DNA of 56,870 bases. Origin: a virus (Duplodnaviria > Heunggongvirae > Uroviricota > Caudoviricetes). A program made the position numbers and the translations under genes. Under the pieces are notes generated by a model that was not told the origin of the DNA, did no database searches, and was given only the letters and a program-made list of their open reading frames with translations. The stretch lies in IMG/VR virus record IMGVR_UViG_2850796239_000009. The stretch is one strand, 5' to 3'. How positions within the stretch are numbered: position 1 is the first letter of the stretch; each line of letters opens with the position of its first letter. Below are positions 10,675 to 43,498 of this stretch, in pieces.

Positions 10675-11588
10675 GGCTGTGTCCCTTAATTACGTAAGCG
10701 TTGATAAAAGAGTCGGATGCAGCCCAGTTTCACCATCGCCAGGTAATTTCTCGCCGTTTTGTCGTAACGCGTGGCGATGCGGCGATATTCTTTCAGCCGC
10801 CCAAAGCACCGTTCAACGACATTACGATTGCGGTACGCATCACGATCAAGCTGTGCACGTCCATCCGATGCCATTTTCTCATTTGACTTTCGGGGATTAC
10901 TGCCTTTATACCGTTATTTTTCAGCTCGTTGCGCAATGCGCGCCCTGAATACGCTTTATCAGCCAGTACCGCATGTCCACGGCGTTTCATGCTGCCGTTC
11001 TGACGCTGAACGCCAATCCCGTCCAGAAGTCGTTGCGCGAACTGGCTTTCATGAGCTTGTCCGGGGCTTAGCACGATATTTAACGGGAGGCCACTTCCGT
11101 CTGTTGCCAGATGGATTTTGGTGCCAAAACCGCCGCGAGAGCGACCCGGCCCATTATCTCCGTCGATATCGGGATGTTTTTTTGAGCACCGGCGGCACAT
11201 TTCAGCGCCCGGATATTACTGCCATCCAGCGCGGTGGCAGACCAGTCAATAAAGCCGTTTGCATCAAGTAGCGAAAGCAACCTGTTGAAAATAATATTAA
11301 TCACGCCTGACTTTGACCATCGGTTAAAGCGGTTATAAACAGTTTTCCATGACCCATATCGTTCGGGTAAATCGCGCCATGGTGCACCGGAACATAACAC
11401 CCAGAACATGCCATTGATGATTTTACGGTGCTCAGCCCATGGGCGTCCGGCCCGTGGTGTGGCGGGTTCAGGAGGTAACAGGGGCTTGATGATGGTCCAT
11501 GCCTCATCGGGAAGGTCGTAGCGAGCCATAGTTCAATATGTTGTGTAAACAGACAGTTACTATAGCTCAGATGATTAAGGGACACAGC
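10675..11588 (-). mobile_element. IS5-family insertion sequence (IS427-group-like), copy 1, 914 bp
   Basis: Inverted ends GGCTGTGTCCCTTAAT; orfA 11080-11529 (-); orfB split (10793-11200, 10686-10874); differs from copies 2 and 3 only at homopolymer lengths. Confidence 0.8.
11080..11529 (-). CDS. IS5-family transposase OrfA (copy 1)
   Basis: 149-aa ORF MARYDLPDEAWTIIKPLLPPEP..., near-identical to OrfA of copies 2 and 3. Confidence 0.75.
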   Translation of the reverse strand: MARYDLPDEAWTIIKPLLPPEPATPRAGRPWAEHRKIINGMFWVLCSGAPWRDLPERYGSWKTVYNRFNRWSKSGVINIIFNRLLSLLDANGFIDWSATALDGSNIRALKCAAGAQKNIPISTEIMGRVALAAVLAPKSIWQQTEVASR

Positions 11589-12160
11589 CTAATACAGTAC
11601 TGCAATTCAACTACAGCAATGCCTCGTATTTAGGTGAATTTACAATATCGTTCTATTCGGATACCAACTGCATTTCTGAAGATAAGGCATTTATGGCTCA
11701 CATATTGGTCCCTCACGCTCGCCAGTTCTGTGCGGGGAGGGAGGGAAGGTAAAGAAACCGGGATGTTCATCCATCATCACTCTGGATTGATGTATATGCT
11801 CTCTTTTCTGACGTTAGTCTCCGACGGCAGGCTTCAATGACCCAGGCTGAGAAATTCCCGGACCCTTTTTGATCAAGAGCGATGTTAATTTGTTCAATCA
11901 TTTGGTTAGGAAAGCGGATGTTGCGGGTTGTTGTTCTGCGGGTTCTGTTCTTCGTTGACATGAGGTTGTCCCGTATTCTGTGTTGCTGATTTGTATTGTC
12001 TGAAGTTTTTTTTACGTTAAGTTGATGCAGATCAATTAATACGATACCTGCGTCATAATTGATTATTTGACGTGGTTTGATGGCGTAGATGCACGTTGTG
12101 ACATGTAGATGATAATTATTATCATTTTGCGGGTCCTTTCCGGCGATCCGACAGGTTACG

Positions 12161-12172
12161 GGGCGGCGACCT
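12161..12172 (+). other. Helper cosN cohesive-end site (lambda-type GGGCGGCGACCT) with flanking cosQ and cosB
   Basis: 12-mer GGGCGGCGACCT followed by CGCGGGTTTTCGCTATTTATGAAAATTTTCCGG..., the recalled lambda genome left end, ~190 bp upstream of nu1. Confidence 0.85.
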
Positions 12173-12349
12173 CGCGGGTTTTCGCTATTTATGAAAATTT
12201 TCCGGTTTAAGGCGTTTCCGTTCTTCTTCGTCATAACTTAATGTTTTTATTTAAAATACCCTCTGAAAAGAAAGGAAACGACAGGTGCTGAAAGCGAGCT
12301 TTTTGGCCTCTGTCGTTTCCTTTCTCTGTTTTTGTCCGTGGAATGAACA

Positions 12350-12895: not shown

Positions 12896-14998
<2,103 letters not shown>

Positions 14999-15026
14999 AA
15001 ACGTCCACCATTCCCACCCTTCTGGG

Positions 15027-16326
15027 CTGAGGGATCCCCACAAAATTACTGCTAATAAACCAGCACCATATTTCGGTAGGTTCTGGACAGATGGTTTAGA
15101 ACTGTGCTCAGTACTGTTCGTCTTAAAATAAGTGGCGAGTGTCGAAGAACATTCTTCGCTAACGTCAGATATGAGATAACCCGCCGGGATTTAATGCTGT
15201 TAGCCTGATATTTCAGGTGTAACCCTTTATTTTCAGCGTGATAACCGAGTAACCACATTACGATAGTGCTCAACGTTGCCAGCAGACTCAGAACCAGAAT
15301 TCTTCCTGTTGAACGACTTTTGCTGGCCCGAAGACCAAATCCGAAGCGCCCGTTCTTTTCATCACGAAAGTTTTGCTCAATCTGCATTCGCCGACTGTAT
15401 AACTTGATGATTTCTCGCGCTCTGAAGTCATTTGTACTGCTGAAGATCAACCAGGCTTCTTTTGCTGATTTGCTCTGTTCTTTGTCTGTTTTGTTTAAAC
15501 CACTCTGACCTTTCGAACGTTTCTTTTTTCGCCCTTTTGCCGATTTCTTATAGGTGTAAAAATGCCCCGGATGCTTTTTTTCCTTTCTTTAACCAGCCTT
15601 CCAGCCCCCATATATTCCGGTGTTTTACATTCAGGGCTATCCGACACTTTTAACCATCTTTCAGGCGCGTTATCGAGGCAATACTGAACGTTATTTCTGA
15701 TCCGACCAATAAAATCCCAGCCCAGAGAAGTAATATGGTGAAACCATGCGCTCTGAAATCCAGCATCCGTGACAATAATAACCCTGGCATCGGGGGGCAG
15801 GGATTGAGCAAGGGAATCAAGGAAATCATGTTGTATCAATGGATTATTTTGTTTTTCAGAAGGAACAACCTTACTCAATAACGGAATGGAACGCCCGTCA
15901 CACAGAAGGCTGGCACGAAGAACATGATGCTCCTGGGAGGGATAGCCACTCCAGTCTACGGCTATTACACATAAAGATAACTGCCGTGTCAGCATTGAAG
16001 TGATATTCCTGAAAATCATTGGAATATCGCGATGGAGCGCCTCATTACCCATGAGGCGATCAATACGTTTGATCTTATTCTTAACTTGTGCATTACCCGG
16101 CAAAAAACGTCCGATACTGGTCAGCGTCAGAGATGCTCCGTTGATTAACGCCACTGTGGCATCCATCAGGGCATTTTGTCGGTACTGATGAAATGGTGCT
16201 AAGGCATCCCGGAAGAAATTCTGACATACTTTATGAACAGGCATAGCAGTGATCTCATTGAATTGTTGGCACAAATCAGTAGATCACATAATGCTATGTC
16301 TGTCTCGTTTTCTGGGGATTCCTCAG
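15027..16326 (-). mobile_element. IS10-like (IS4-family) insertion sequence, copy 1, inserted in portal gene B
   Basis: Inverted ends CTGAGGGATCCCCA / CTGAGGAATCCCCA; 9-bp target duplication CCTTCTGGG at 15018-15026 and 16327-16335. Confidence 0.8.
15052..16274 (-). pseudogene. IS10-like transposase (copy 1), frame broken at a G run
   Basis: Two ORFs (15495-16274, 15052-15450) together match the intact 407-aa copy at 34672-35895; copy 1 has CCGGGG where copy 2 has CCGGGGG. Confidence 0.7.
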
Positions 16327-17133
16327 CCTTCTGGGGCCGGACGGCATGACATCGCTGCGTGAATATGCCGGTTATCACGGCGGTGGCAGCGGATTTGGTG
16401 GGCAGTTGCGGGCGTGGAACCCACCGGGTGAAAGTGTGGATGCAGCCCTGCTGCCCAACTTTACCCGTGGCAATGCCCGCGCAGACGATCTGGTACGCAA
16501 TAACGGCTATGCCGCCAACGCCATCCAGTTGCATCAGGATCATATCGTCGGGTCTTTTTTCCGGCTCAGTCATCGCCCAAGCTGGCGCTATCTGGGCATC
16601 GGGGAGGAAGAAGCCCGTGCCTTTTCCCGCGAGGTTGAAGCGGCATGGAAAGAGTTTGCCGAGGATGACTGCTGCTGCATTGACGTTGAGCGAAAACGCA
16701 CGTTTACCATGATGATTCGGGAAGGTGTGGCCATGCACGCCTTTAACGGTGAACTGTTCGTTCAGGCCACCTGGGATACCAGTCCCTCGCGACTGTTCCG
16801 GACACAGTTCCGGATGGTCAGCCCGAAGCGCATCAGCAACCCGAACAATACCGGCGACAGCCGGAACTGCCGTGCCGGTGTGCAGATTAATGACAGCGGT
16901 GCGGCGCTGGGATATTACGTCAGCGAGGACGGCTATCCTGGCTGGATGCCGCAGAAATGGACATGGATACCCCGTGAGTTACCCGGCGGGCGCGCCTCGT
17001 TCATTCACGTTTTTGAACCCGTGGAGGACGGGCAGACCCGCGGTGCAAATGTGTTTTACAGCGTGATGGAGCAGATGAAGATGCTCGACACACTGCAGAA
17101 CACGCAGCTGCAGAGCGCCATTGTGAAGGCGAT
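16327..17133 (+). pseudogene. B: Portal protein gpB, middle fragment
   Basis: MTSLREYAGYHGGGSGFGGQLRAWNPP...LQNTQLQSAIVKA matches recalled gpB residues ~15-283; N-terminal stub [11 protein letters not shown] at 14995-15026 is cut off by IS10-like; fragment ends at the satellite junction. Confidence 0.85.
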
Positions 17134-17261
17134 TTATGTCTATCATCTCACCGTAGTTGCCCGCATCGTTCGCCAACTCCACTGAAACCCTTGCTGCGTC
17201 TGGAATGTCGTTTTCCATGCTTTTGATGACCGTTCATCACCCTTCCAGTTTTTCGCGGTTT

Positions 17262-17315
17262 TGTGTATTGCAATGTGTATTGCAAATTGGCGATCGGGAT
17301 GGGTGTGTATTGCAA
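17262..17315 (+). repeat. Three direct TGTGTATTGCAA repeats next to attL (putative integrase arm-type sites)
   Basis: TGTGTATTGCAA at 17262-17273, 17274-17285 and 17304-17315, just upstream of int; two related copies lie near attR. Confidence 0.45.
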
Positions 17316-17333
17316 ATCTCTTGAGGGCTTTTA

Positions 17334-18574
17334 ATGGCTATTGAAAACAAACTCAGTGACAAACTGTTAAAGAGTCTTGTCGGAAAACGGCAGGACAAAC
17401 AAAAAACAATAGCGGATGGGCGCGGGTTGTCTGTGCGTGTAAGCATGGTTGGGGGATCAGCTTTGTTTTTTACTATCGTCTTGGTGGCAGGGAATCCCCT
17501 CCGGTATGGCTTACACTTGGTCGCTATCCTGACATGTCTCTTGCAACGGCCAGGCGCATGCGTGATCAGTGCCGTGAATGGCTGGCTGAAAATCTGGACC
17601 CCCGCAGGCAAATAAAACTTGCTGCCGAAAAAACTATGCAACCAGTGACCGTAAGGGATGCGCTGTTTTACTGGTACGACAATCACGCCACAACAGCCAG
17701 AAAAGAGCATGAATATTTAATAAAACGATTTGAAAAGCATATCTTCCCCTATATCGGTGATATGGCTATAGAACAGTGCAAATTACACACATGGCTTACC
17801 GTCTTTGACAGGATCAAAAAAAATGCGCCTGTTATGTCTGGTGCAATTTTTCTTGATATCAAACAGGCGTTGCGTTTTTGTCGCGTCAGGCAATACATCG
17901 CGTGCGATCCCTTTGGAGATATTAACGTAAGTTATGTCGGGCGCTCATCCGGTATAAGGGATCGCGTTCTTAATATCAATGAAACCGCTGATGTATGGTC
18001 TTATGCTTACGGTAATAATTTGCTAACTCTGTCATCAATATATAACCGAAGAATAATGGTTATCTGCCTGGTGTTTGGTTGCCGACAGCAGGAGGCGAGG
18101 CTATCCACCTGGGACGAATGGGATTTAAAAAACTGGGTATGGACAGTCCCAAAAGAGCACAGCAAAAACAAGGAGGCTATAGTAAGGCCTGTTCCTGACG
18201 GAATAAAACAATGGATCGTTAATCTTTACGCAGAAACAAAAAATCGCGGTTATGTTGTCGGTTGTGCTTTGCAAAGGGCGACAATAACAGGGGCTGCAAA
18301 CAGAATATGCAGGCGTCTTGGTCATGATACTAATGGCTTGTGGTGCATACATGATTTCAGGCGCACATTTTCCACTACGCTTAATGATATGGGGGCGGAT
18401 CCTTATATTGTCGAACTTCTTTTAGGTCATAAAGTGAAAGGGGTTGCTGGTGTTTACAATAAAAGCAGGCATATAAAGAAAAAACTTGAGGTGCTTAATA
18501 TGTGGGTTAATTACCTTAATACGATAGCAGGATTTAACAACAACGTTATCGAGCTTAATAAAGAGGTGGTGTGA
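17334..18574 (+). pseudogene. int: Tyrosine integrase (P4/CP4-57 type), frame broken in a T6 run
   Basis: MAIENKLSDKLLKSLVGKRQDKQKTIADGRGLSVRVS... switches frame at TTTTTT (17466-17471) to ...YRLGGRESPPVWLTLGRYPDMSLATARRMR... with catalytic domain (HDFRRTF, LLGH). Confidence 0.8.
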
Positions 18575-18575
18575 T

Positions 18576-18833
18576 ATGGCAATTTATTCTCTTGTTGATG
18601 AAAACGATTTGCGCACAATGAAGGACATTGATCGGTTCATTCGTGAAAAAGAGTGCATAGCACTTACCACGCTGGCAAACTCAACACGCTGGAAAATGGA
18701 GCAGGCAGGTAAATTCCCGCGACGTATCAAGATCGGTGAACGTGCTGCAGGGTATCGACTTTCAGAGGTTCAGGCATGGATCCGTGGTGAGTGGCATCCT
18801 GGATGGAAACCTGGAAAAACAAAACAGCAATAA
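18576..18833 (+). CDS. AlpA-family HTH regulator / excisionase-like
   Basis: 85-aa ORF with ...ALTTLANSTRWKMEQAGKFPRRIKIGERAAGYRLSEVQAWIRG, the AlpA/Xis MerR-like HTH pattern; immediately follows int. Confidence 0.6.
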   Translation: MAIYSLVDENDLRTMKDIDRFIREKECIALTTLANSTRWKMEQAGKFPRRIKIGERAAGYRLSEVQAWIRGEWHPGWKPGKTKQQ

Positions 18834-18846
18834 CCAGTAAATAATG

Positions 18847-18869
18847 CCCCTCATCACGAGGGGTTTTTT
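18847..18869 (+). terminator. Rho-independent terminator after int-alpA
   Basis: CCCCTC-ATCAC-GAGGGG hairpin followed by TTTTTT. Confidence 0.5.
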
Positions 18870-18889
18870 GTCTATAAGGTAAAAACGCG

Positions 18890-19468
18890 ATGAATAAAAA
18901 TATTGCCGTGACGGGCAAGGGGTACGCTCGTCCAGTGAAAAAATTCTGCGATATTCGTGATCTCGTCGTTCTGCGCTTTGATAGTGTGAACGTTCGTGTG
19001 GTGTATCTGAACGGCGATCCGTGGTTTGTTGCAAAAGATGTTTGTGCTGCGCTGGAACTAACCAATTCGCGTACGGCGTTGCAGATGCTTGATGATGATG
19101 AAAAGGGAGTAAATTTAACTTACACCCCAGGAGGAAATCAGAATATGAGAATTATCTCTGAGTCAGGTTTCTACAAACTAATAGCCCGCAGCCGCAAAGC
19201 AACGACGCCTGGCACATTTGCTCATCGTTTCAGTAACTGGGTATTCAGAAATGTGATACCAGGTATCAGAAAAACGGGGACTTATGGTATCCCGTGGGGT
19301 GCATTACAGGATTTTTCCCGCCGTAAAGAGCAATATCAAATAAGTGCCAGCGAGAAGGGGAGGGAGCTACAGGCATGTAAGCGCAAAAAGCGTGAGCTGG
19401 AGGAAGAAGAAAAAACGCTGATACGTGAATATCAGCCTGAGTTTTACTTTGGTAACCGCATTCAGTGA
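18890..19468 (+). CDS. BRO-N / KilA-N domain protein (antirepressor-like)
   Basis: 192-aa ORF with N-terminal ...LNGDPWFVAKDVCAALELTNSRTALQMLDDDEKG..., the Bro-N domain pattern. Confidence 0.6.
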   Translation: MNKNIAVTGKGYARPVKKFCDIRDLVVLRFDSVNVRVVYLNGDPWFVAKDVCAALELTNSRTALQMLDDDEKGVNLTYTPGGNQNMRIISESGFYKLIARSRKATTPGTFAHRFSNWVFRNVIPGIRKTGTYGIPWGALQDFSRRKEQYQISASEKGRELQACKRKKRELEEEEKTLIREYQPEFYFGNRIQ

Positions 19469-19801
19469 CAAAACAAAGGCGACCGCAAAAGGGTCGCCAG
19501 TGGGAACAAGGGAAAACAAAAGCATCACCAACAATGCCACATTTGCGGCTGGTGGGCAATGTGATCAGTCAGATTTGGTTCGTTCCAAGGTTTGCAACGA
19601 GAGCTTTTTCCTGTGCTCTTTAAGGAATTTCTCAAGAGCAAACGAACAAGGTGCGAATCTTTCTGATTCATGTTCATGCGCTATATTTTTGCGTCGTCTC
19701 TTACGAGTTGGTGATGGTGTTTTGGTTGATTCTGTGTCGCTCATGGTGCTGTCCTGTAAAGCAATGCGCCTGCGTTCCTCAAACTATGGCGCTGATATTG
19801 G

Positions 19802-20107
19802 CTATTCATGCTCTTTGACCTTGCGTCGCTGGAGTTCTTCACGCGCGACGGTGACGAGTTGCCCGATCTCCTCGGCTGCTTTGATGCCGATTTGTTCGAC
19901 CTTAGCCAGGGCATCCAGTGACGACACAAGGGGATTTTCTCCGCTGCCTTCTGCTTGGCGGCGGGCTATTTCTCCGCGCATGGCGGTTACGATAAATCCG
20001 GCATTGCTTTCACCGTCCAGCTTAACGGATTCCATCCCTTGCATAACATCTAGTGGGACTCTGACAGTTGTCAGTTGTGATTTTGCGTTTTTGTTAGCCG
20101 TTGCCAT
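19802..20107 (-). CDS. Putative ribbon-helix-helix DNA-binding regulator
   Basis: 101-aa ORF whose N-terminus (TTVRVPLDVMQGMESVKLDGESNAGFIVTAMRGEIARRQ) has an RHH-like strand-helix-helix pattern; divergent from the downstream operon. Confidence 0.35.
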   Translation of the reverse strand: MATANKNAKSQLTTVRVPLDVMQGMESVKLDGESNAGFIVTAMRGEIARRQAEGSGENPLVSSLDALAKVEQIGIKAAEEIGQLVTVAREELQRRKVKEHE

Positions 20108-20168
20108 TTCTGAAACTCCTAATCATCGGTGTGTTTCAGTATACACAAAAAAAGAAATACAAAAAGCC

Positions 20169-20206
20169 TTGACGTGTGTTTCATGCGCTCATAACATGAA
20201 ACACAC
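20169..20206 (+). promoter_or_regulatory. Putative promoter (-35 TTGACG) overlapped by a 12-bp inverted repeat operator
   Basis: GTGTGTTTCATG-n9-CATGAAACACAC perfect inverted repeat at 20174-20206 in the divergent intergenic region. Confidence 0.35.
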
Positions 20207-20348
20207 CGAAAGGATTGTTGAAATACAAAGAGCAACGCCCCGCAGTGCTGGGAACACATACGGGGCGTCTAACCAACAACGTAAACTAGGCTGTGTCCCT
20301 TAATCATCTGAGCTATAGTAACTGTCTGTTTACACAACATATTGAACT

Positions 20349-20798
20349 ATGGCTCGCTACGACCTTCCCGATGAGGCATGGACCATCATCAAGCCCCTGT
20401 TACCTCCTGAACCCGCCACACCACGGGCCGGACGCCCATGGGCTGAGCACCGTAAAATCATCAATGGCATGTTCTGGGTGTTATGTTCCGGTGCACCATG
20501 GCGCGATTTACCCGAACGATATGGGTCATGGAAAACTGTTTATAACCGCTTTAACCGATGGTCAAAGTCAGGCGTGATTAATATTATTTTCAACAGGTTG
20601 CTTTCGCTACTTGATGCAAACGGCTTTATTGACTGGTCTGCCACCGCGCTGGATGGCAGTAATATCCGGGCGCTGAAATGTGCCGCCGGTGCTCAAAAAA
20701 ACATCCCGATATCGACGGAGATAATGGGCCGGGTCGCTCTCGCGGCGGTTTTGGCACCAAAATCCATCTGGCAACAGACGGAAGTGGCCTCCCGTTAA
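20349..20798 (+). CDS. IS5-family transposase OrfA (copy 2)
   Basis: 149-aa ORF MARYDLPDEAWTIIKPLLPP...; A7 slippery run (GCTCAAAAAAAC) near its end feeds into orfB. Confidence 0.8.
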   Translation: MARYDLPDEAWTIIKPLLPPEPATPRAGRPWAEHRKIINGMFWVLCSGAPWRDLPERYGSWKTVYNRFNRWSKSGVINIIFNRLLSLLDANGFIDWSATALDGSNIRALKCAAGAQKNIPISTEIMGRVALAAVLAPKSIWQQTEVASR

Positions 20799-21193
20799 AT
20801 ATCGTGCTAAGCCCCGGACAAGCTCATGAAAGCCAGTTCGCGCAACGACTTCTGGACGGGATTGGCGTTCAGCGTCAGAACGGCAGCATGAAACGCCGTG
20901 GACATGCGGTACTGGCTGATAAAGCGTATTCAGGGCGCGCATTGCGCAACGAGCTGAAAAATAACGGTATAAAGGCAGTAATCCCCCGAAAGTCAAATGA
21001 GAAAATGGCATCGGATGGACGTGCACAGCTTGATCGTGATGCGTACCGCAATCGTAATGTCGTTGAACGGTGCTTTGGGCGGCTGAAAGAATATCGCCGC
21101 ATCGCCACGCGTTACGACAAAACGGCGAGAAATTACCTGGCGATGGTGAAACTGGGCTGCATCCGACTCTTTTATCAACGCTTACGTAATTAA
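20678..21193 (+). CDS. IS5-family transposase OrfB (DDE domain; likely OrfAB fusion by -1 frameshift)
   Basis: 171-aa ORF overlapping orfA in the -1 frame. Confidence 0.75.
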   Translation: MCRRCSKKHPDIDGDNGPGRSRGGFGTKIHLATDGSGLPLNIVLSPGQAHESQFAQRLLDGIGVQRQNGSMKRRGHAVLADKAYSGRALRNELKNNGIKAVIPRKSNEKMASDGRAQLDRDAYRNRNVVERCFGRLKEYRRIATRYDKTARNYLAMVKLGCIRLFYQRLRN

Positions 21194-21215
21194 GGGACAC
21201 AGCCTAGGAGCCGTT

Positions 21216-21413
21216 ATGGTTGCTGTAAATCATATACCACACCTTGTACACACACAAACGGCCTTTGTGTGGCGTTTTCTGGCACTGAGTGCCGGAGAAT
21301 CTCAAATCATCCACGTAACCGCCTGGACGGAACGCGAAGCGCGTAGCCGTTGCCCGTCCGGTTGTGTTGCTGTATTCGCTGCAAAAATCCGCCAGGGAGT
21401 GAGTCATGCTTAA
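21216..21413 (+). CDS. Hypothetical small protein (satellite operon)
   Basis: 65-aa ORF starting right after the IS5-family copy. Confidence 0.25.
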   Translation: MVAVNHIPHLVHTQTAFVWRFLALSAGESQIIHVTAWTEREARSRCPSGCVAVFAAKIRQGVSHA

Positions 21414-21591
21414 AACCTTCCGTGTATTTGCCCGAGCTGTTAACCCAATAGGCCACACAATTGGTATCGCTCAGAATGTGAAGGCTGTTAATGTTCAGAC
21501 GGCTATTGCTGCGGTGAGAAGCGAATCATCAGAATATGGCTTATCACAAGTCATTATTTCAGCAGTGTATGAATTAAAAGAGGTGCATTAA
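21406..21591 (+). CDS. Hypothetical small protein (satellite operon)
   Basis: 61-aa ORF overlapping its neighbours. Confidence 0.3.
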   Translation: MLKTFRVFARAVNPIGHTIGIAQNVKAVNVQTAIAAVRSESSEYGLSQVIISAVYELKEVH

Positions 21592-21782
21592 TGCAGGAAA
21601 TTACATTACACGAAGCCGCTGAACGTGCGCACCAGACAGAAATTATTTGCCGCCTTCTTGAGGTATACCCGAACAAAATTACAGATGCTGATATATCCGC
21701 ACTGGCGAGCCTACTGGCGCGTCTTTCGGGAAGTGTCGCTAGTTTTTTGATTGAGGAAGAAAGTAAGCTGGTGGGGGATTAA
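21591..21782 (+). CDS. Hypothetical small protein (satellite operon)
   Basis: 63-aa ORF with overlapping stop/start. Confidence 0.3.
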   Translation: MQEITLHEAAERAHQTEIICRLLEVYPNKITDADISALASLLARLSGSVASFLIEEESKLVGD

Positions 21783-22004
21783 ATGAATACAGAACGGGAA
21801 GTCTTTTTTAAATTGTTAGCATGTGCAGAAAGTTCATTAACTTTAAATAATTCAGCAAAAGCAATATTAAATATGTGGCTTGATTGCATAAATGACAATG
21901 AAGATGCAAATATTGCTTATGGCCTGTTGTCACTTATTGATGAATCAGCAGAAAAACTCAATGACGCAATAAATAGTGCCCTGCTATCAAATAAGTCGAG
22001 TTAA
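21783..22004 (+). CDS. Hypothetical small protein (satellite operon)
   Basis: 73-aa ORF. Confidence 0.3.
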   Translation: MNTEREVFFKLLACAESSLTLNNSAKAILNMWLDCINDNEDANIAYGLLSLIDESAEKLNDAINSALLSNKSS

Positions 22005-22021
22005 GTCGAGGAATAAATAAT

Positions 22022-22321
22022 ATGGAAATGAAAAATTCTGGCTTTATTGCCAGCGGCCCCGCTCGACCTGAATTTATGAACGGCGATATTTACCGCGATA
22101 AATACGGCGGCACGGTAACGATTAAAGGCGTGGCAGAACGGCGCATCACTTACCGCCGTGAGGGGTATAGCTATGACTGCGTGATGCCTGTTTATCAGTT
22201 CCGGCGTGATTTTTCCCTGGTATATGCCGCACCCCGCAGTAAGCCCATCAGCAGGGAAAAAGCGTGGGGAAATATCCAGAAAATGAAAACCATGATTAAC
22301 GGATTCAGAGGTAAAAAATGA
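22022..22321 (+). CDS. Hypothetical protein (satellite operon)
   Basis: 99-aa ORF whose stop overlaps the pri-rep start. Confidence 0.3.
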   Translation: MEMKNSGFIASGPARPEFMNGDIYRDKYGGTVTIKGVAERRITYRREGYSYDCVMPVYQFRRDFSLVYAAPRSKPISREKAWGNIQKMKTMINGFRGKK

Positions 22322-24071
22322 AACTGGCACCGAACGTAAAACAGCAGTCACGCGGCATAAAACACAAAGGAACAGAAGTAATTATTTTTGCGGGTAGTGA
22401 TGCCTGGGCACACGCGAAACAATGGCAGGAACATGATGCGCGTATGGCCGGAGATAATGAGCCTCCTGTGTGGCTTGGGGAGCAGCAGCTATCCGAACTG
22501 GATAATCTGCAAATTGTGCCGGAAGGCCGAAAATCAGCACGCATATACAGGGCCGGATATCTTGCGCCTGTAATGATAAAGGCGATTGGTCAGAAGCTGG
22601 CGGCAGCAGGCGTACAGGATGCAAATTTTTATCCTGAGGGTATGCACGGCCAGGAGGTGCAGAACTGGCGCGAATATCTGGCCCGTGAACGCCAGAATCT
22701 TTCTGATGGTCTGGTCATTGAGCTTCCGGTAAAGCAAAAGGCGCAACTTTCGCAGATGGCGGACAGTGAGCGCGCGCAGTTGCTTGCCGATCGCTTTGAT
22801 GGCGTTTGCGTACATCCTGAAAGTGAAATCGTTCACGTATGGCGCGGCGGGGTATGGTGTCCGGTCAGCACAATGGAACTTAGCCGCGAAATGGTGGCGA
22901 TCTATTCAGAGCACAGGGCCACTTTCAGCAAGCGCGTAATCAATAACGCCGTGGAAGCGTTAAAAGTTATTGCCGAACCAATGGGCGAGCCGTCTGGCGA
23001 TTTGCTGCCGTTCGCCAATGGTGCGCTTGACCTGAAAACGGGGGAATTTTCCCCGCACACGCCGGAGAACTGGATCACCACGCACAACGGCATTGAGTAC
23101 ACGCCACCAGCACCAGGGGAGAACATCCGCGATAACGCGCCAAACTTTCATAAATGGCTTGAGCACGCAGCCGGAAAAGACCCGCGCAAGATGATGCGTA
23201 TATGTGCCGCGCTGTACATGATTATGGCGAACCGGTACGACTGGCAGATGTTTATTGAGGCCACCGGAGACGGCGGGAGCGGTAAAAGTACATTCACACA
23301 CATAGCCAGCCTTCTGGCAGGGAAACAGAACACGGTAAGCGCTGAAATGACATCGCTTGATGATGCTGGTGGACGTGCGCAGGTTGTCGGGAGTCGTCTT
23401 ATCGTCCTGGCTGACCAGCCGAAATATACAGGCGAAGGAACGGGCATCAAGAAAATCACAGGCGGCGACCCGTGGAAATTAACCCGAAATATGAAAAGCG
23501 TTTCACGGCGGTAATCAGGGCGGTGGTGCTGGCGACCAACAACAACCCGATGATATTCACCGAACGGGCCGGAGGTGTGGCACGTCGTCGCGTGATTTTC
23601 CGTTTCGACAATATCGTCAGTGAGGCCGAAAAAGACAGGGAGCTACCGGAAAAGATTGCGGCTGAAATCCCCGTTATTATCCGCCGATTGCTGGCGAACT
23701 TTACCGACCCTGAGAAGGCACGGGCTTTACTACTGGAACAGCGTGACGGTGATGAAGCACTGGCAATAAAGCAACAGACGGATCCGGTTATTGAGTTTTG
23801 CCAGTTCCTGAATTTTCTGGAGGAAGCGCGCGGCCTGATGATGGGTGGCGGTGGTGATTCAGTGAAGTACACGACCAGGAACAGCCTTTACCGCGTCTAT
23901 CTGGCGTTTATGGCATACGCGGGCAGGAGCAAACCGCTAAACGTGGCTGAGTTCAGCAAGGCCATGAAGCCAGCGGCGAAAGTTTACGGGCATGAATATA
24001 TTACGCGAAAAGTTAAGGGAGTAACGCAGACCAACGCAATTACAACAGACGATTGCGACGCGTTTTTATAA
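22318..24071 (+). pseudogene. Primase-helicase (pri-rep, D5/P4-alpha-like), frame broken near 23470
   Basis: Walker A GDGGSGKST; ...KITGGDP switches frame to VEINPKYEKRF...NNNP (helicase-like C-terminus); two ORFs 22318-23514 and 23472-24071. Confidence 0.7.
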
Positions 24072-24087
24072 TTTTTTGTAAAAGCCA

Positions 24088-24325
24088 TCTACCCCATCTA
24101 CCTGAACGAAATAAACGCATATTATTCAACATGATAAGTGGGTATAGGGCTAGGTAGAAGGCTAATAAAAGCTCTCTACCTCTTCTACCTGATTTTATCA
24201 GTTTCAGGTAGCAGGGTAGACGGCAGGTAGAGGAGTCAAAAAAGCTATCTACCCGCTGAAAGCGGCGCCATTACTGACATGATGAGCATTCGGGTAGATG
24301 GGTAGAGGGGGGAGGCACAACTAAA
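24088..24325 (+). repeat. Iteron cluster / putative satellite replication origin
   Basis: At least ten TCTACC/GGTAGA-type repeats in both orientations with AT-rich spacers, directly downstream of pri-rep. Confidence 0.5.
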
Positions 24326-24355
24326 AACTTTTTAAACGAGGGGGGGTGAAAATAA

Positions 24356-24670
24356 ATGCGCATACATAAAAATCACTTAACAAACATGCCAGCCGAAAAC
24401 ATGAATCAGGGGCGACAAATGACCAAAATTCGCAGAGACAGAACACAGGCAAAATATAAAGCGTTAGACATGACAGAGCTTTCCTTAAAGGTGGCAATCA
24501 AAGCGATAGACCACCACACACGGGCAGGATACGCGAAGGAACATCCCGACCTGATAAGCGCATTCATGACCACAGCAGCGGCAAACTTTGCCACGCTGAC
24601 AGAACGGGAGATTGCCGAAGCGGAACAGGTGACAACCATCAATGTTAAAACCGGAGAGCAGACAGCATGA
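24356..24670 (+). CDS. Hypothetical protein
   Basis: 104-aa ORF; no recognisable motif. Confidence 0.3.
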   Translation: MRIHKNHLTNMPAENMNQGRQMTKIRRDRTQAKYKALDMTELSLKVAIKAIDHHTRAGYAKEHPDLISAFMTTAAANFATLTEREIAEAEQVTTINVKTGEQTA

Positions 24671-25089
24671 CAGCACAGATAGCGGCTTACGGGCGGCTGG
24701 TGGCTGACCCGCAGTTAAAGACCACCAGCAAAGGGACACAAATGGCGATGGCGAGTATGGCGGTTCCCCTGCCGTGCAGCCAGGCAGATGACGGAACGGC
24801 GACGATGTGGTTATCCGTCCTGGCGTTTGGCAGACAGGCCGACGCACTGGCAAAACACCACAAAGGCGAACTGGTGAGCGTGGCGGGTAACATGCAGGTA
24901 AGCCAGTGGACAGGCCAGAACGGCGAAACGCGGCGGGGCTGGCAGGTTATCGCAGACAGCGTAATCAGTGCGCGAACGGCGCGACCGGGCGGCAAAAAAG
25001 GCCAGCAGGGGCAGGCCACTGACGCACTGAACAGGGCAAAACAACAGTCGGGGAATGATGATCCGTACGGCGATAATATACCGTTTTAA
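24667..25089 (+). CDS. SSB-like single-stranded DNA-binding protein
   Basis: 140-aa ORF with Gly/Gln-rich linker and acidic C-terminal tip DDPYGDNIPF resembling the SSB tail DDDIPF. Confidence 0.5.
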   Translation: MTAQIAAYGRLVADPQLKTTSKGTQMAMASMAVPLPCSQADDGTATMWLSVLAFGRQADALAKHHKGELVSVAGNMQVSQWTGQNGETRRGWQVIADSVISARTARPGGKKGQQGQATDALNRAKQQSGNDDPYGDNIPF

Positions 25090-25300
25090 ATTCTGCAAAC
25101 AAAAAGATGCCGGAAAAAAATAGATTTTCCGGCATGCTACATAAATCCCGACCAAAGGAAGTAAATACATTAACACGAATTATCAGCACTGAAGTTGTTA
25201 CGGCATATTTTATACAACATTGCACTTGGTTGCATGTGTTCGCATAGCAGACATCGGTAATAGAATATATTCACAATTATTTGTAATGAATGTAAAGAGG

Positions 25301-26347
25301 ATGAGTATGGTTGATTTATATTCGCCTACACAGCTTGTGCAGGTGGCTAATGCTGAAGATGTGCAAAAAAATTAAATGCGTTGTTTACCAGTTTGTTTTT
25401 CACTCGCTCGGTAATGTTTGAATCGAGAGACATTATTCTTGATACGATCGACGATCCAAATATCCCGATCGCGGCGTTTTGCTCTCCTATGGTGGGCAGT
25501 AAAGTTTCACGAGATGAGGGATACGAATCAAAAACAATTCGTCCAGGTTATATGAAGCCGAAAAGCAGCATTGATCCAAATAAGTTAGCTGTGCAGCCCT
25601 GCTGGTGTGTCACCTGAGCAATACAATGCTTTTGGGGCGCGTAATATTAAAGTTAAACAGGCGATTGTAAATCAGGCTAAAGCTATTCGTGCACGTATTG
25701 AATGGCTTGCTGTTCAGGCAATCACAACGGGGAAAAATATCATTGAGGGCGATGGTATTGAACGTTATGAGCTGGACTGGAATATAAAACCACAAAATAT
25801 CATCACTCAGTCTGGCGGTACTGAGTGGTCAGGTAAGGATAAAGAAACTTTTGATCCAAATGATGATATTGAGAGCTACGCAGAATTTAGTGAGGGCGTC
25901 ACTAATATCATCATTATGGGTGGTAATGTATGGAAGAAATACCGTTCATTCAGAGCGATAAAAGAGGCTTTGGATACCCGTCGTGGTTCTAATTCCGAAC
26001 TGGAAACGGCCCTTAAAGACCTTGGTGATTCGGTGAGTTTTAAAGGGTATATGGGCGATGTTGCGATTGTTGTTTACAGCGGGCGTTATACCGACGAGGA
26101 CGGAACAGAAAAACATTTCCTTGATCCTGATTTGATGGTGCTTGGCAATACGGCTCTTCAGGGGATTGTCGCCTATGGCGGTATTCAGGATCCGGAGCTA
26201 ATCCGAATGGGGCTGACTAAAGCCGAACTTGCACCGAAAAACTATATTGTGCCTGGTGATCCGGCTATTGAATATGTGCAGACACATTCAGCACCACAGC
26301 CAATACCGGCCCGCATCAATCGTTTTGTTACCGTTCGCATTGGCTAA
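25301..26347 (+). pseudogene. Major capsid protein paralog (lambda gpE-like) encoded by the satellite; two homopolymer frame breaks
   Basis: MSMVDLYSPTQLVQVANAEDVQK (compare gpE MSMYTTAQLLAANEQKF), then ...ITQSGGTEWS...DTRRGSNSELETALKDLG...GDVAIVVYSG... alignable with the helper gpE at 31416-32441; breaks at the A7 run 25365-25371 and CCC at 25597-25599. Confidence 0.75.
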
Positions 26348-26356
26348 GGGGGAGCA

Positions 26357-26698
26357 ATGGCTACTCATTACACTGAACTCATGGCTGGCACTGAAGCACT
26401 GGTGACTACGCTGGGGATATTTTCAGCTAATAAAGGGGTAATTCCTGCATTTACGCCACTGATGCAGGAAGATGCAACAGGTGCACTGGTGGTATGGGAT
26501 GGTTCGAGCGTAGGTAAAGCGGTTTATGTTTCCGCTGTACAAATCGACACCGCGAAAAAAACACAGGCTCAGGTCTATAAGACAGGTGTCTTAAATGTTG
26601 ATGCTCTGAACTGGCCTGAGTCTGTTAAAGAACTGTCAGTAAAGGTTGCAGCGTTTGTTGGCTCAGGTATTTCTGTTCAGCCGCTGGCTCGTGTGTAA
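26357..26698 (+). CDS. Head decoration protein paralog (lambda gpD-like) encoded by the satellite
   Basis: 113-aa ORF with ...AFTPLMQEDATGALVVWDGSSVGKAVYVSAVQID... alignable with helper gpD (...[35 protein letters not shown]...). Confidence 0.7.
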   Translation: MATHYTELMAGTEALVTTLGIFSANKGVIPAFTPLMQEDATGALVVWDGSSVGKAVYVSAVQIDTAKKTQAQVYKTGVLNVDALNWPESVKELSVKVAAFVGSGISVQPLARV

Positions 26699-26709
26699 AG
26701 GGGGATACA

Positions 26710-27093
26710 ATGCAGAATGATTACAATGACCTTAAGCCAATTGCCGAAATGATGTACCCGAATCCAGCTGTAGAGGAATTAAAAGCTATCGCTGACAAAA
26801 TGTGTTTAAGCGAGCGCCTTGTTGATATGAATCAGGTGATGGAAATTACAACCCTGAGTCGTCGTACACTGCTAAACCTTGAGGCTAGTGGAGAGTTCCC
26901 GGAGCGTGTGCAGGTTACGGAAGGGCGTAAGGCCTGGTATTTAAGTGAAGTGATCGACTGGATAAATAATATTCCTCGCGCTTCTGAATATTGCCGCGTA
27001 CCTGTCCCAAAAAAGCCAGATGCGGCGCTATGCCTCAAGATTGAGCGTGTACGCCGCAATGCACGGGATGGTCGCTATAAGCTGATTGGTTGA
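26710..27093 (+). CDS. AlpA-like HTH DNA-binding protein
   Basis: 127-aa ORF with ...MEITTLSRRTLLNLEASGEFPERVQVTEGRKAWYLSEVIDWINN, a MerR/AlpA-like HTH pattern. Confidence 0.45.
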   Translation: MQNDYNDLKPIAEMMYPNPAVEELKAIADKMCLSERLVDMNQVMEITTLSRRTLLNLEASGEFPERVQVTEGRKAWYLSEVIDWINNIPRASEYCRVPVPKKPDAALCLKIERVRRNARDGRYKLIG

Positions 27094-27149
27094 TGAAATT
27101 AGGGCCCGCTCTGGCTGGCGGGTCCTTTCCGGTGATCCGGTAGGCTACG

Positions 27150-27161
27150 GGGCGGCGACCT
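27150..27161 (+). other. Satellite cos site (cosN GGGCGGCGACCT, helper-like cosQ, divergent cosB)
   Basis: GGGTCCTTTCCGGTGATCCGGTAGGCTACGGGGCGGCGACCTCGCGGGTTTTCGCTATTTATGA matches the helper cos at 12131-12195 almost base for base, then diverges. Confidence 0.75.
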
Positions 27162-27282
27162 CGCGGGTTTTCGCTATTTATGAGCCTTTTTCGGGTGCTG
27201 GTGGTGGTTTTGTTGTTCGCTCTATCTCTATGAATAAAAAGGAAAAGATAAAGCCAATACACCAACCTGAAACATTACTTAA

Positions 27283-27837
27283 GTGGGGATATTGATGAAA
27301 TCGCACCTGATGAACAAAAAAAACATGGCGCAAAGCTGCCGTGTAAGTGCGACAGCGTTCGACAAGTGGGGAGTGACTCCCGTTGAACGTAAAGGCCGCG
27401 AGGCGTTTTATGATGTTGCCAGCGTAATAGACAATCGGGTTAGCAATGCAATTAACCAGATTACAGACGACAAAGGCGAGATTGATGATGATGAACTCCT
27501 ACGAGTCAGGATCAGATTGCTGACAGCACAGGCAGAGGCGCAGGAGCTTAAAAACGAGCGCGAACGCGGCGACGTTATTGATACAGCGTTTTGTATATAC
27601 GTGCTTTCAAAATTGGCGAGTCAGATTTCTTCAATCATGGACAGCCTGCCGCTTGCCATGACAAGGAAGTTTCCCGACATGAAGCCGTCTATGCTGGATG
27701 GACTGAAAAAAGAAGTTATCAGAGCCTGTAACGCATGCGCAAAACTTGACGAAAACATACCGCTGATGCTGTCCGATTATCTGATGGAAACTGCCGGAAA
27801 CGTACCGGATAAGTTGCAGCCGAATAAAGATAAGTAA
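27283..27837 (+). CDS. Satellite terminase small subunit (Nu1-like; divergent N-terminal domain)
   Basis: C-terminal part ...LTAQAEAQELKNERERGDVIDTAFCIYVLSKLASQISSIMDSLPL... parallels Nu1 ...[46 protein letters not shown]...; true start may be Met-10 (27310). Confidence 0.7.
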   Translation: MGILMKSHLMNKKNMAQSCRVSATAFDKWGVTPVERKGREAFYDVASVIDNRVSNAINQITDDKGEIDDDELLRVRIRLLTAQAEAQELKNERERGDVIDTAFCIYVLSKLASQISSIMDSLPLAMTRKFPDMKPSMLDGLKKEVIRACNACAKLDENIPLMLSDYLMETAGNVPDKLQPNKDK

Positions 27838-27848
27838 CGTAGTACGCT

Positions 27849-28130
27849 ATGACTGAATCCGAAATACTGCGATTAATCCGCCGTGCTTGTGGAATCAGCA
27901 AGCAGCATGACGAACAGGCCACGCAGCCGGACAGCGTGACCGCAGATAATTATGTGCGTGTAGTGGCTGAGGTGATGCGCCGTGACGGTATTGAGCTTAA
28001 CGGCGTGGATATGCGCAACATACGAACAAGAGTCCTTGAGTTGCTGGCATATCGTCGCCGTTCTCAACAACGGAGGGAGAGCGCGAAAAATACTTACCAG
28101 TGGAAGAAGCCGGAACGATTGCGGCGGTAA
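27849..28130 (+). CDS. Hypothetical protein
   Basis: 93-aa basic ORF after terS. Confidence 0.3.
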   Translation: MTESEILRLIRRACGISKQHDEQATQPDSVTADNYVRVVAEVMRRDGIELNGVDMRNIRTRVLELLAYRRRSQQRRESAKNTYQWKKPERLRR

Positions 28131-28560
28131 CTTGCTGATATTCCCGATAACGCAAAATTGCGCTGGCTGACTTGTTGCATTGCAAAAAGTTAAGCAGGAA
28201 GGCACGGCCTGTAAGATGGGATGCAGTAAGTAGTTCAAGGCTACCTTGTGCTGGCACGCACAGTTAAGCCGTCGGTGCTGGATATCCCCCACTGGGGAAA
28301 AGCTGGCTACATCCCTCACATCTGAGGACTGATAACGCGACATTGCGCTGGCTGGCAAAGTGCAAAATTGCACGATGGCCTAACCCATTGATTATTTCGA
28401 AAACCTGCAATGCAGGAAATCGGGGAAGTAAGCCTAAGCTATTGATTGTTTCGAAAACCCCCATTGGGGGATGTCGGGAAAGTAAGACTAACCCATTGAT
28501 TCTTCCACAATCCTCAATTTGAGGAGGCCGGAACGTCTACATAGCTGCATCGCCGTAATG
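28130..28560 (+). repeat. Array of direct repeats each containing a different perfect palindrome (covarying stems)
   Basis: Three tandem ~54-bp units (28383-28545) share ATTGATTnTTyC...TCGGGrAAGTAAG and hold CCTGCA-A-TGCAGG, CCCCCA-T-TGGGGG, CCTCAA-T-TTGAGG; related pair GATAACGCnAnATTGCGCTGGCTG at 28146 and 28331 with CGCAA-AA-TTGCG, TTGCA-T-TGCAA, GTGCAA-AA-TTGCAC. Confidence 0.6.
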
Positions 28561-28843
28561 ATGATTCAGCCCACCAGCCAAATCAGCACAGCAACGACAG
28601 AATAGCCCGACACAGAAAAACCACGAATATGGGGTTTTTGTTATGACATGGTCATGATGACCACTCATACAAAACAGGTAAAGCCCACCAGCCTGATTAA
28701 AGGTTAACCGGAAAAAAGCCAGGTATCCAATCTCGATATGGGGATCCCTATATCGACATTAACGCCCACTAAAACTGTGCATATATGCATAGAAAAAGCA
28801 TCCACCAGCTTTATGACGGATGCCGCTCATCTTATAAATAATC

Positions 28844-28866
28844 GTGTATTGCAGTGTGTATTGCGA
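28844..28866 (+). repeat. Two GTGTATTGC repeats next to attR (arm-type-like)
   Basis: CGTGTATTGCAGTGTGTATTGCGA, related to the TGTGTATTGCAA repeats at attL. Confidence 0.4.
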
Positions 28867-28946
28867 CTCCTTTAAACGATAGGTCTGAGCATTCGTAATG
28901 TACTGTTTTTAAATTTTATTTTTTCCTGTCTTTTCATAAAGGCGAT

Positions 28947-29718
28947 GTATGCCGCCACCATTGAGAGTGAGCTGGATACGCAGTCAGCGATGGATTTTAT
29001 TCTGGGCGCGAACAGTAAGGAGCAGCGGGACAAGCTGACCGGCTGGATTGGTGAAATTGCCGCGTATTACGCCGCAGCACCGGTCCGTCTGGGAGGCGCA
29101 AAAGTGCCGCACCTGATGCCGGGGGACTCACTGAACCTGCAGACGGCTCAGGACACGGATAACGGCTACTCCGTGTTTGAGCAGTCACTGTTGCGGTATA
29201 TCGCTGCCGGGCTGGGTGTCTCGTATGAGCAGCTTTCCCGGAATTACGCCCAGATGAGCTACTCCACGGCACGGGCCAGTGCGAACGAGTCGTGGGCGTA
29301 CTTTATGGGGCGGCGAAAATTCGTCGCATCCCGTCAGGCGAGCCAGATGTTTCTGTGCTGGCTGGAAGAGGCCATCGTTCGCCGCGTGGTGACGTTACCT
29401 TCAAAAGCGCGTTTCAGCTTTCAGGAAGCCCGCAGCGCCTGGGGGAACTGTGACTGGATAGGCTCCGGTCGTATGGCCATCGATGGTCTGAAAGAAGTAC
29501 AGGAAGCGGTGATGCTGATAGAAGCCGGACTGAGTACCTACGAGAAAGAGTGCGCAAAACGCGGTGACGACTATCAAGAAATTTTTGCCCAGCAGGTCCG
29601 TGAAACGATGGAGCGCCGTGCAGCCGGTCTTAAACCGCCCGCCTGGGCGGCTGCGGCATTTGAATCCGGACTGCGACAATCAACAGAGGAGGAGAAGAGT
29701 GACAGCAGAGCTGCGTAA
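28947..29718 (+). pseudogene. B: Portal protein gpB, C-terminal fragment
   Basis: MYAATIESELDTQSAMDFILGANSKEQRDKLTGW...LRQSTEEEKSDSRAA matches recalled gpB residues ~284-533; resumes exactly where 16327-17133 stops. Confidence 0.85.
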
Positions 29719-32441: not shown

Positions 32442-32523
32442 TCATGGCCCTTCGGGGCCATTTTCTCTCTGTGGAGGAGTCCATGACGAAAGTAAGCGCT
32501 CCGAGAAGTACGTAGCGTAAGGA

Positions 32524-34124
32524 TTATTTTACAGACGAGAAGTTCCAGGGCAGCAGTTCATGCACTTGGTTCGACGGCCAGTCATTGAGCTTCTCGATCA
32601 CTTCGCGCAACCAGTCCTCCGGCTCCACTTCGTTCTGTTTGCAGGTGACCAGCAGACTGTAGATGATCGCCGCACTTTCTCCTCCCTTGTCTGAGCCGAA
32701 AAAGAGATAATTTTTTCTTCCAACCGCCACCGATCGTAACGCGTTTTCACCGATGTTGTTGTCTATTTCCACCCAGCCGTCACGACAGAACTCGTTCAGC
32801 GCATTCCAGTGATTCAGGATATAGTCGAACGCCTTCGCCATCTCCGCATGTTTCGACAGCGTTTTCCTCTGCAACTGTATCCAGTCGTACAACGACTGCA
32901 TCAACTGGACGCTTCTGGCTTTTCTGACTGCAAGCCGTTCCTCTGCCGGACTGCCACGTATCTCCGCTTCTATGTCGTATAACTCTGCTATCCGTCTGAG
33001 CGCTTCCTGAGTCATTTCTGTCGGACGGCGCACATCCTCGTCATGGATTTTTCGGCGGGCGTGGGCCAGGCACCCGGCTTCCTTCACCCGGCCCGTTTCG
33101 TACAGTACGTTATAACCTGCATAGGCATCAGCCTGCAGTACGCCCTGATACTTTGCCAGGTGGAGCTGCGGATGTTCTCCTTTGCGATCTGCCGAATACG
33201 CGAACCAGACGGCTGCCGGCAGGGATGAACCCGCATTACGATCATCCCTGACGTATACCCACAGACGACCCGTTTTCGTCTTTCCGTTCCCCGGGGCCAG
33301 TACTTTCACCGGAGTGTCATCTGCGTGCACCTTTCCTGCCTCCAGAACATAGTCATTCAGCGCTATATACAGAGGACGGAGTTTGTCTGCCATTTCTGAT
33401 ACCCAGCGCACCATGGTATTACGGCTCAGCTCCACGCCCTGTCGCGCGTATATTTCTGACTGGCGATATAAAGGGATATGTTCCATATATTTGCTGACCA
33501 GGATCCGTGCAAGTAACCCTGCACTGGCATAACCGCGTTCGATCGGTTTAGGGGAAGTGGTGCCTGAACGATGACATCACACCGGCTACAGGCCAGTTTG
33601 GGACGTATGGTTTCGATAACTTTAAAGGCGGTATTAATGATATCCAGTTGCTCTGAGATTGTTTCCCCCATTTCTTTCAGAACACCTCCACAGGCCGGGC
33701 AACTGGTTTCAGCAGGCAGAAGGCGATGTGTCTCCCGGGGAAGTTCTGCCGGCAGCGGTTTTCGTGAAGATTTTCGTCCCGGGGATTCAGGCTTACTGGC
33801 GATCGGGTTTTCTGACGGGGGACTGGTGTCAGGTGAATCTGTGACTGACGATGCATCTTCCAGAAGATTTCTGGCTGTGTTCAGCCGGTTTTCCAGTTCC
33901 GACAGTCGTTTTTCTGCCTGTCGGATCTGATTTTCAAGCTTATGACGCTTTTTCTCTGAACTCTGGCCGAACAACATACGACGCAACCTGTCGAGTTGCG
34001 CTTTCAGCCGTTCAATTTCCTGCTCATAGCCCGCGACCTGACAGGCATACTGTCGAAGCCGACTCTGTTGCTTACGCAACATGGCTTTAAGCAGCTCAAT
34101 ATCATCGGGGAGTTCATTGTTCAT
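32524..34124 (-). pseudogene. IS66-family transposase TnpC, frame broken near 33520
   Basis: N-terminal zinc-finger part (CPACGG...CSRCDV) at 33426-34124 and C-terminal DDE part ([17 protein letters not shown]...) at 32524-33486 lie in different frames. Confidence 0.75.
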
Positions 34125-34143
34125 TCCCTTGTTTTATCACGGG

Positions 34144-38296: not shown

Positions 38297-38303
38297 GGAC
38301 GAT

Positions 38304-39044: not shown

Positions 39045-39059
39045 TCCGGAGAGTCAGCG

Positions 39060-43493: not shown

Positions 43494-43498
43494 ATCCC

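Follow-up and report, generated by a model that had tools for sequence, protein, structure and literature searches.

A helper-embedded satellite, very probably of the B:Phage_portal_2:241 group, in the portal gene of a lambda-type prophage

The viral record IMGVR_UViG_2850796239_000009 (56,870 nucleotides, Caudoviricetes; hereafter the window, meaning this whole stretch) contains a lambda-type prophage whose portal gene B is split by a satellite-like element, and the locus raises the question of what kind of element settles in a structural gene of its own helper and what becomes of that gene while it is there. Our analysis indicates that the element is very probably a helper-embedded phage-inducible chromosomal island (HE-PICI) of the site group B:Phage_portal_2:241, a lambda-dependent satellite of 10.9 kb with an integrase directed at codon 278/279 of the portal gene. 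HE-PICIs were defined by Tommasini, Mageeney and Williams (NAR Genomics and Bioinformatics 2023; PMC10111431), who mapped them to 14 sites in cognates of the lambda late genes; three of these sites are in B, and one of the three is B:Phage_portal_2:241. The original prediction, made from the sequence of the window alone, had called integration into a helper structural gene unusual, a judgement that does not hold for a catalogued group. The element, its insertion site and the idea that the portal is withheld until excision were all published in 2023, and this is not a new kind of system. The lifestyle itself is that of a virus parasite living inside an essential virus gene and controlling when that gene can be used.

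The portal gene begins at position 14995, downstream of Nu1, A and W, and its frame reads ...LQSAIVKA up to 17133 and restarts at 28947 with MYAATIESE, exactly where the original prediction had placed the two breaks. The 5' fragment (14995..17133, + strand) covers codons 1-278 and matches positions 2-239 of the Pfam Phage_portal_2 profile in an intact relative, the 3' fragment (28947..29718, +) covers codons 279-533 and matches positions 235-354, and the break thus falls at profile position ~239. Between them, at 17134-28946, lies a discrete integrative element that splits B at the 8-bp core AAGGCGAT, present as predicted at both junctions, in attL (17126..17133, +) and in attR (28939..28946, +); the same identity block is listed for B_Phage_portal_2_241 in Supplementary File 1 of the published survey (PMC10111431). 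No replacement portal sequence is supplied by the satellite: the attL frame exits the portal at the core, enters the non-portal sequence IYVYHLTVVARIVRQLH and meets a stop 17 codons past the core. The satellite is situated between Nu1-A-W-B' and B''-C-D-E in the same orientation as the helper late operon, with only one annotated gene off the late-operon strand.

Removing the satellite in silico, together with an IS10-like insertion sequence (IS) that interrupts the 5' fragment, and joining 14995-15026, 16336-17133 and 28947-29718 gave an open reading frame (ORF) of 533 amino acids (aa), colinear with the lambda portal protein B from 1-533 to 1-533 (PDB 8K38, 1209.8 bits). The reconstructed 132-bp attB was 100% identical to intact portal genes, among the E. 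coli matches listed, and 99.2% identical to phage lambda gene B (J02459). If attL and attR recombined precisely, an intact B allele (junction GTGAAGGCGATGTATGCC) would therefore result, and the expected junction of the excised attP is TTTCATAAAGGCGATTTATGTC.

Membership in the HE-PICIs follows from the match of the att site. Compared with the published excerpts, the identity block and attR of the window are the same and attL differs by one base, and the supplement lists 11-kb E. coli elements of B:Phage_portal_2:241 with the identity block aaggcgat (PMC10111431). The intact element measures 10,899 bp in relatives, in agreement with the predicted size of about 10.9 kb without the nested IS, on the scale of P4 and the PICIs. 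The published group (e.g., Eco10269.11.B_Phage_portal_2_241) and the window element have in common the insertion codon, the 10.9-kb size, doubled TGTATTGC arms and the order of the four zones; unlike the published elements, the window copy has a nested 913-bp IS, an IS10-like insertion in the portal and frameshifts that are possibly technical.

The arms of the attachment site provide further evidence for this assignment. The P' arm (17262..17315, +) consists of a doubled TGTGTATTGCAA (17262-17285, copies at 17262-17273 and 17274-17285) and a third copy at 17304-17315, while the P arm (28843..28866, +) contains a doubled TGTATTGC motif formed by two related copies, so that the three repeats beside an integrase gene at the left and the two related repeats at the far end are where the original prediction had seen them. 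The 8-mer TGTATTGC occurs seven times in the window (2.05 expected), five of the seven within the arms, and the 12- and 30-bp spacing of the arm repeats is retained in three diverged relatives (L021, L022 and L024). In the reconstructed attP, the upstream pair extends from -98 to -78, the downstream pair starts at +134 and the third copy at +176. Among attP sites, a doubled motif tgTGTATTGCantgTGTATTGCa has been reported only for HE-PICIs, where it lies at 81 +/- 2 bp on the upstream side of the centre and at 132 +/- 2 bp on the downstream side, under a counting convention that is not stated (PMC10111431); the doubled tgTGTATTGCantgTGTATTGCa motif is found here on both sides of the attP centre, as for HE-PICIs. 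The attP of chromosomal cos-type PICIs is reported to be without the doubled TGTATTGC motif (PMC10111431).

Directly downstream of B' and on the same strand are a tyrosine integrase gene (int; 17334..18574, +; Pfam Arm-DNA-bind_3, Phage_int_M and Phage_integrase in the intact copy), broken here by a one-base contraction of a G run at 17451, and alpA (18576..18833, +; Pfam Phage_AlpA, E 5e-14), of the excisionase/activator family. No terminator-like sites were found on the + strand from the junction through alpA. The closest integrase relative found by DNA search in E. coli, judged by identity (46%), is that of a PICI adjoining yhdJ, a location that we take to be the fis site. Integrases of the fis site have been described as close relatives of HE-PICI integrases (PMC10111431). 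When other HE-PICI integrases were sought in E. coli at the DNA level, only short weak matches to chromosomal PICI integrases were returned.

The core itself varies among the relatives. In the divergent portals of L018 (~9790-9800) and L022 (~3615-3625), the left half of the attL core is AAAGCCAT or CGCGCCAT rather than AAGGCGAT; because of these variant halves, the 8-bp identity block is apparently not strictly required, and the true strand-exchange region may lie further right, near AT-N-TATG.

Our analysis of gene content, called by Pfam on intact copies from E. coli EC93 (L002) and strain 210205630 (L001), recovered the predicted alpA, BRO-N, pri-rep, SSB, capsid, decoration and small terminase genes, in an order that fits the published Integration, Bro, Replication and Late zones (PMC10111431). 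The Bro zone holds a BRO-N domain protein (18890..19468, +; Pfam Bro-N, E 5e-20), followed by the sole annotated opposite-strand gene, which encodes a YlcI/YnfO-like small protein (19802..20107, -; RefSeq annotation of L001 and L002; phrog_6522). An icd-like gene, three small genes and a DUF4222 gene (21216..22321, +) lead to the D5-type primase-helicase gene pri-rep (22318..24071, +; Pfam D5_N, DUF5906 and Pox_D5), which has a one-base C-run contraction at 23469. Directly downstream of pri-rep are direct and inverted YCTACC(TGA) iterons (24079..24310), recognised by sequence as predicted, which form a putative origin at a position that agrees with that reported for PICI origins (PMC10111431); a small gene and an SSB gene follow (24419..25089, +; Pfam SSB, E 5.5e-16; phrog_1231). 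The features of Gram-negative PICIs were therefore found together: a size of ~10-15 kb, int, alpA, pri-rep and an origin, with neither lysis nor tail genes.

The Late zone contains a major capsid gene (25307..26347, +; Pfam Phage_cap_E, E 3e-41; PDB 3BQW, E 1e-121), a paralog of lambda E with one base lost at 25365 and one gained at 25595, whose product is 42% aa identical to the helper E protein of EC93 by blastp, and a gene for a head decoration protein paralogous to lambda D (26357..26698, +; Pfam HDPD; 38% aa identity to helper D of EC93). These are followed by a second AlpA-like helix-turn-helix regulator (26710..27093, +; Pfam Phage_AlpA, E 8e-9; phrog_2790) and, beyond the cos and small terminase, a 93-aa protein (27849..28130, +; phrog_1561, E 1e-55). 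Pfam detected no portal, protease, head-tail adaptor, large terminase, tail or lysis genes in the satellite. In EC93 (L002 18377-19402), the helper major capsid gene E has an internal stop and the embedded satellite capsid paralog is intact.

The satellite cos (27118..27294, +), also recognised by sequence as predicted, was aligned with the helper cos and with the lambda left end. It includes the lambda cohesive end GGGCGGCGACCT at 27150-27161 and a 66-bp match to helper positions 12129-12194, and it also matches the annotated lambda cos; cosN matches helper and lambda, and the cosB-equivalent to its right is diverged. Immediately downstream is a Nu1-like small terminase gene (27295..27837, +; Pfam Phage_Nu1 profile 80-162), whose product is 37% aa identical to the helper Nu1 of EC93 over its full length by blastp. 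The helper-matching cosN and the Nu1-like small terminase give indirect support to a predicted packaging of the satellite by the helper.

Is this arrangement a mobile one? Among 5426 complete E. coli genomes, the left end of the satellite was found in 64 and the junction of portal and satellite at attL in 63, whereas the empty, uninterrupted site (counted at a coverage of at least 80%) was found in 3120, and also in phage lambda. This comparison with related genomes upholds site-specific integration, as originally predicted, and not rearrangement. Compared with EC93, 3 substitutions were counted across the 10.9 kb of the satellite, against 12 in 798 bp and 67 in 2954 bp of the portal DNA on its two sides; the shift in divergence therefore falls at the att boundaries. 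Left ends 96.5-100% identical to that of the window were found in portals of only ~66% DNA identity (IMG/VR contigs L003, L009, L011 and L018), and among distant satellites, with integrases 76-89% identical, L022 and L024 adjoin portal sequence on the left and L021 is joined to a 3' fragment of the portal gene. The occurrence of near-identical satellites in diverged helpers suggests active spread. As lambda carries the target site, the group would be a convenient model.

How the satellite would use this position can be framed by analogy with Eco567.11capE, the founding HE-PICI (site E:Phage_cap_E:80), which is of the same class and has the same cis-regulatory logic. In 11capE, the only HE-PICI with induction data, the composite was excised and replicated first and the satellite was excised later, restoring the gene (PMC10111431). 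For the portal element, prophage induction would likewise lead the helper-satellite composite to excise and replicate as one unit, helper late transcription would read through Nu1-A-W-B' into int and alpA, and the arm-binding domain of Int, acting on the five TGTATTGC sites together with AlpA, would then excise the satellite; only after this step would portal protein be made. From its gene set, the satellite would replicate from its own iteron origin with its primase-helicase and SSB, and may build its own shell of diverged E and D paralogs on the helper portal, the product of the very gene that it interrupts, with helper scaffold/protease and tails. The Nu1-like small terminase would read a private cosB beside the lambda-identical cosN, and in this way the helper large terminase may be recruited and redirected. 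The two elements differ in that 11capE targets the capsid gene and the window element the portal gene, and in that 11capE was reported to be without terS, whereas the window element has a Nu1-like terS and a diverged cosB.

The original prediction went further and proposed that the element could hold helper morphogenesis hostage until it excises. With its frame interrupted, B cannot be produced as long as the satellite stays integrated, and portal withheld until excision is the published model for the HE-PICI class (PMC10111431); this part of the claim stands. The satellite has no portal of its own and therefore needs B as much as the helper does, so that the putative lock is more aptly seen as a matter of timing than as pure antagonism or hostage-taking.

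In Bacillus subtilis, excision of the skin element from sigK rebuilds the interrupted gene at a defined time, as does excision of a Listeria phage from comK. The term 'regulated gene integrity' has been used for such excision-restored genes (PMC10111431). Unlike in the skin and comK switches, the interrupted gene here belongs to another mobile element, and the timing would serve the satellite, not the cell.

Several points weigh against this account of an active, helper-timed satellite. An exact-match search of viral and metagenome contigs for the excised attP junction found none. The induction data cover 11capE and none were reported for the portal-site group, and even with 11capE no virions were recovered (PMC10111431); our literature search turned up no later experiments on the group. 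The roles given to the E, D and TerS paralogs rest on homology, and knockout of a PICI capsid gene has been reported as tolerated. In addition, int, primase and capsid are frameshifted in the window and, if these frameshifts are real, the copy is dead.

This last point bears on the reading that survives best beside ours, namely that the composite in this genome is an inert fossil in which IS elements, and possibly frameshifts, have inactivated satellite and helper; we lean slightly towards it, and it concerns the state of this copy, not its kind. The IS insertions are real. An IS10-like element of the IS4 family (15027..16326, -; 1300 bp, DDE_Tnp_1), flanked by a 9-bp duplication CCTTCTGGG, lies outside the satellite in the 5' portal fragment and is absent from L001 and L002; satellite excision alone would therefore not restore B here. 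A nested IS5-family element (20291..21203, +; 913 bp, DUF4096 and DDE_Tnp_1), with CTAGG at both ends, lies 8 bp before the icd-like gene, the first of the replication block, separates this block from its upstream region and is absent from 52 of 52 near-full-length relatives. Because of these two insertions, the composite probably cannot complete its cycle unaided. An IS66-family element with a nested IS at the start of helper gene FI points in the same direction, as does the report that many HE-PICI helpers appear truncated (PMC10111431). The IS within the satellite is intergenic, and mobilisation in trans by an incoming helper would still be possible, which argues against complete inertness.

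The frameshifts can be read in both directions. Relative to intact copies, changes of a single base disrupt int, primase and capsid, and H and J among the helper tail genes are also frameshifted; together these would add to the signs of inactivation. Four of the five changes within int, primase and capsid are one-base homopolymer contractions, the fifth being an extra A in capsid that is not in a run, and one-base shortenings of G, C or A runs relative to close relatives were found at 17451, 23469, 24307, 25365, 28294, 41650, 43585 and 46191, with the same pattern in H and J. Such contractions are typical of sequencing error, and the frameshifts are probably the result of systematic homopolymer under-calling; real decay was set aside since nearly all of them are of this kind and the helper tail genes show the same.

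That the element acts mainly against the helper or against phages in general, with the portal knockout disarming the prophage for the benefit of the cell, is improbable. Such a role would account for the lack of an intact helper portal during integration, and satellites commonly lower helper yield. Against this, PADLOC found no known defence systems among ten accessory proteins, a full set of integration, replication and packaging genes is retained together with the cos, restoration of B is needed by a satellite without its own portal, and near-identical copies in diverged helpers indicate spread.

Still less probable is a capsid-forming PICI (cf-PICI) or P4-like satellite that merely lies in a prophage, although the element has capsid, decoration and small terminase genes of its own, a P4-like size and the int-alpA-primase layout. 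Genes for a major capsid protein and a small terminase are found in the satellite as in the cf-PICIs (10.1101/2022.09.08.507074), but the latter supply every capsid and packaging protein themselves and borrow only tails, whereas the only genes of the head and packaging set found here are those for capsid, decoration protein and small terminase, without portal, protease, adaptors or large terminase. With P4 it shares the ~11 kb size, alpA, a primase-helicase and a helper-matching cos, and the HE-PICI integrase has been placed in the same broad clade as that of P4 (PMC10111431). The helper is lambda-type and not P2, the satellite encodes its own capsid protein rather than re-sizing that of the helper, Pfam gave no matches to Sid, Psu or Delta, and an Rfam search over 17000-29100 at E up to 0.1 gave no match and hence no support for a P4-type CI/C4 RNA. 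The element also resembles EcCICFT073 and other Gram-negative cos-type PICIs, with which it has in common the int-alpA-Bro-primase-ori layout, a lambda-type cos and a lambdoid helper, as well as a capsid protein close to PDB 3BQW, titled 'putative capsid protein of prophage'; those islands sit in chromosomal genes and act on the helper only in trans, which the window element does not.

An assembly joint or random rearrangement, for which the homopolymer errors in the window are the sole reason for caution and no support was found, can be practically dismissed, given that 63 independent complete genomes and IMG/VR contigs have the same junctions, that the empty site is precise and that the att sequences are published.

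Within the HE-PICI reading, the private pair of cosB and small terminase, the high Chi content and a right-end hairpin module are not treated for this group in the published survey (PMC10111431). We raise only as a tentative and rather doubtful possibility that a partial head former, Chi shielding and a hairpin cis element or RNA belong to the packaging and survival strategy of the portal-site group.

Chi (GCTGGTGG) occurs ten times in the satellite (19548, 21767, 23104, 23365, 24696, 24722, 27197, 28571, 28685 and 28802) and not at all in ~33 kb of helper late DNA; the window total is 17, against 2.1 expected. Three Chi sites of the same orientation (28571, 28685 and 28802) form a cluster ~1.4 kb beyond the satellite cosN on its right side, another lies 47 bp from cosN, and the Chi nearest each cos end is mostly oriented for recognition by RecBCD entering from that end. 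These sites could protect linear or concatemeric satellite DNA, which lacks Gam, from RecBCD. The Chi triplet was rejected as a group-defining feature, as diverged relatives do not retain it (in L021 the right end is free of Chi). A further five Chi sites, three on one strand and two on the other, are clustered within 650 bp (2129-2778) inside the region of a DUF968 (ydfU-like) prophage gene.

The three clustered Chi sites of the satellite (28571, 28685 and 28802) belong to an unannotated, non-coding module at the right end of the satellite (28131..28842), together with three tandem 54-nucleotide hairpin units (28378-28539). The stems of the units vary while pairing is kept (CCTGC/GCAGG, CCCCC/GGGGG and CCTCA/TGAGG), and the flanks CTAACCCATTGATT and CGGGGAA are conserved. 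The units have no Rfam match and no supported ORF, and the module could be an unrecognised cis element or RNA. Related units with other stem variants were found in L017 and at the right end of a chromosomal PICI adjacent to clpS (L031 5100-5400). A type III toxin-antitoxin system, composed of the 54-nucleotide repeats and a 166-aa minus-strand ORF (27873-28373), was considered and rejected: the ORF has no Pfam or PHROG match, overlaps a well-supported plus-strand gene and is split into 139 and 74 aa in the intact L002.

The IS5-family and IS10-like elements each occur more than once in the window. The 913-bp IS5-family element is present in three copies (10676-11587, -; 20291-21203, +; 49844-50756, +) that are 99.9-100% identical and all within one prophage-satellite composite; each has two overlapping ORFs (DUF4096 and DDE), and the two plus-strand copies have CTAGG at both ends. 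The transposase frame of the IS10-like copy in the 5' portal fragment is broken; a second IS10-like copy (34620-35920) is intact (407 aa) and nested in the IS66-family element, which measures 4062 bp (32493-36554), has GTAAGCG... ends and a 9-bp duplication TGACGAAAG, and is inserted at the first codons of FI.

Against the best complete E. coli genomes, identity is 99.9% for the satellite but only ~96.5% for the tail half of the window (38000-56870). The end of the prophage (53662-56870) adjoins pinQ-, ydfK- and ydfJ-type genes, a location that we read as the E. coli Qin prophage locus.

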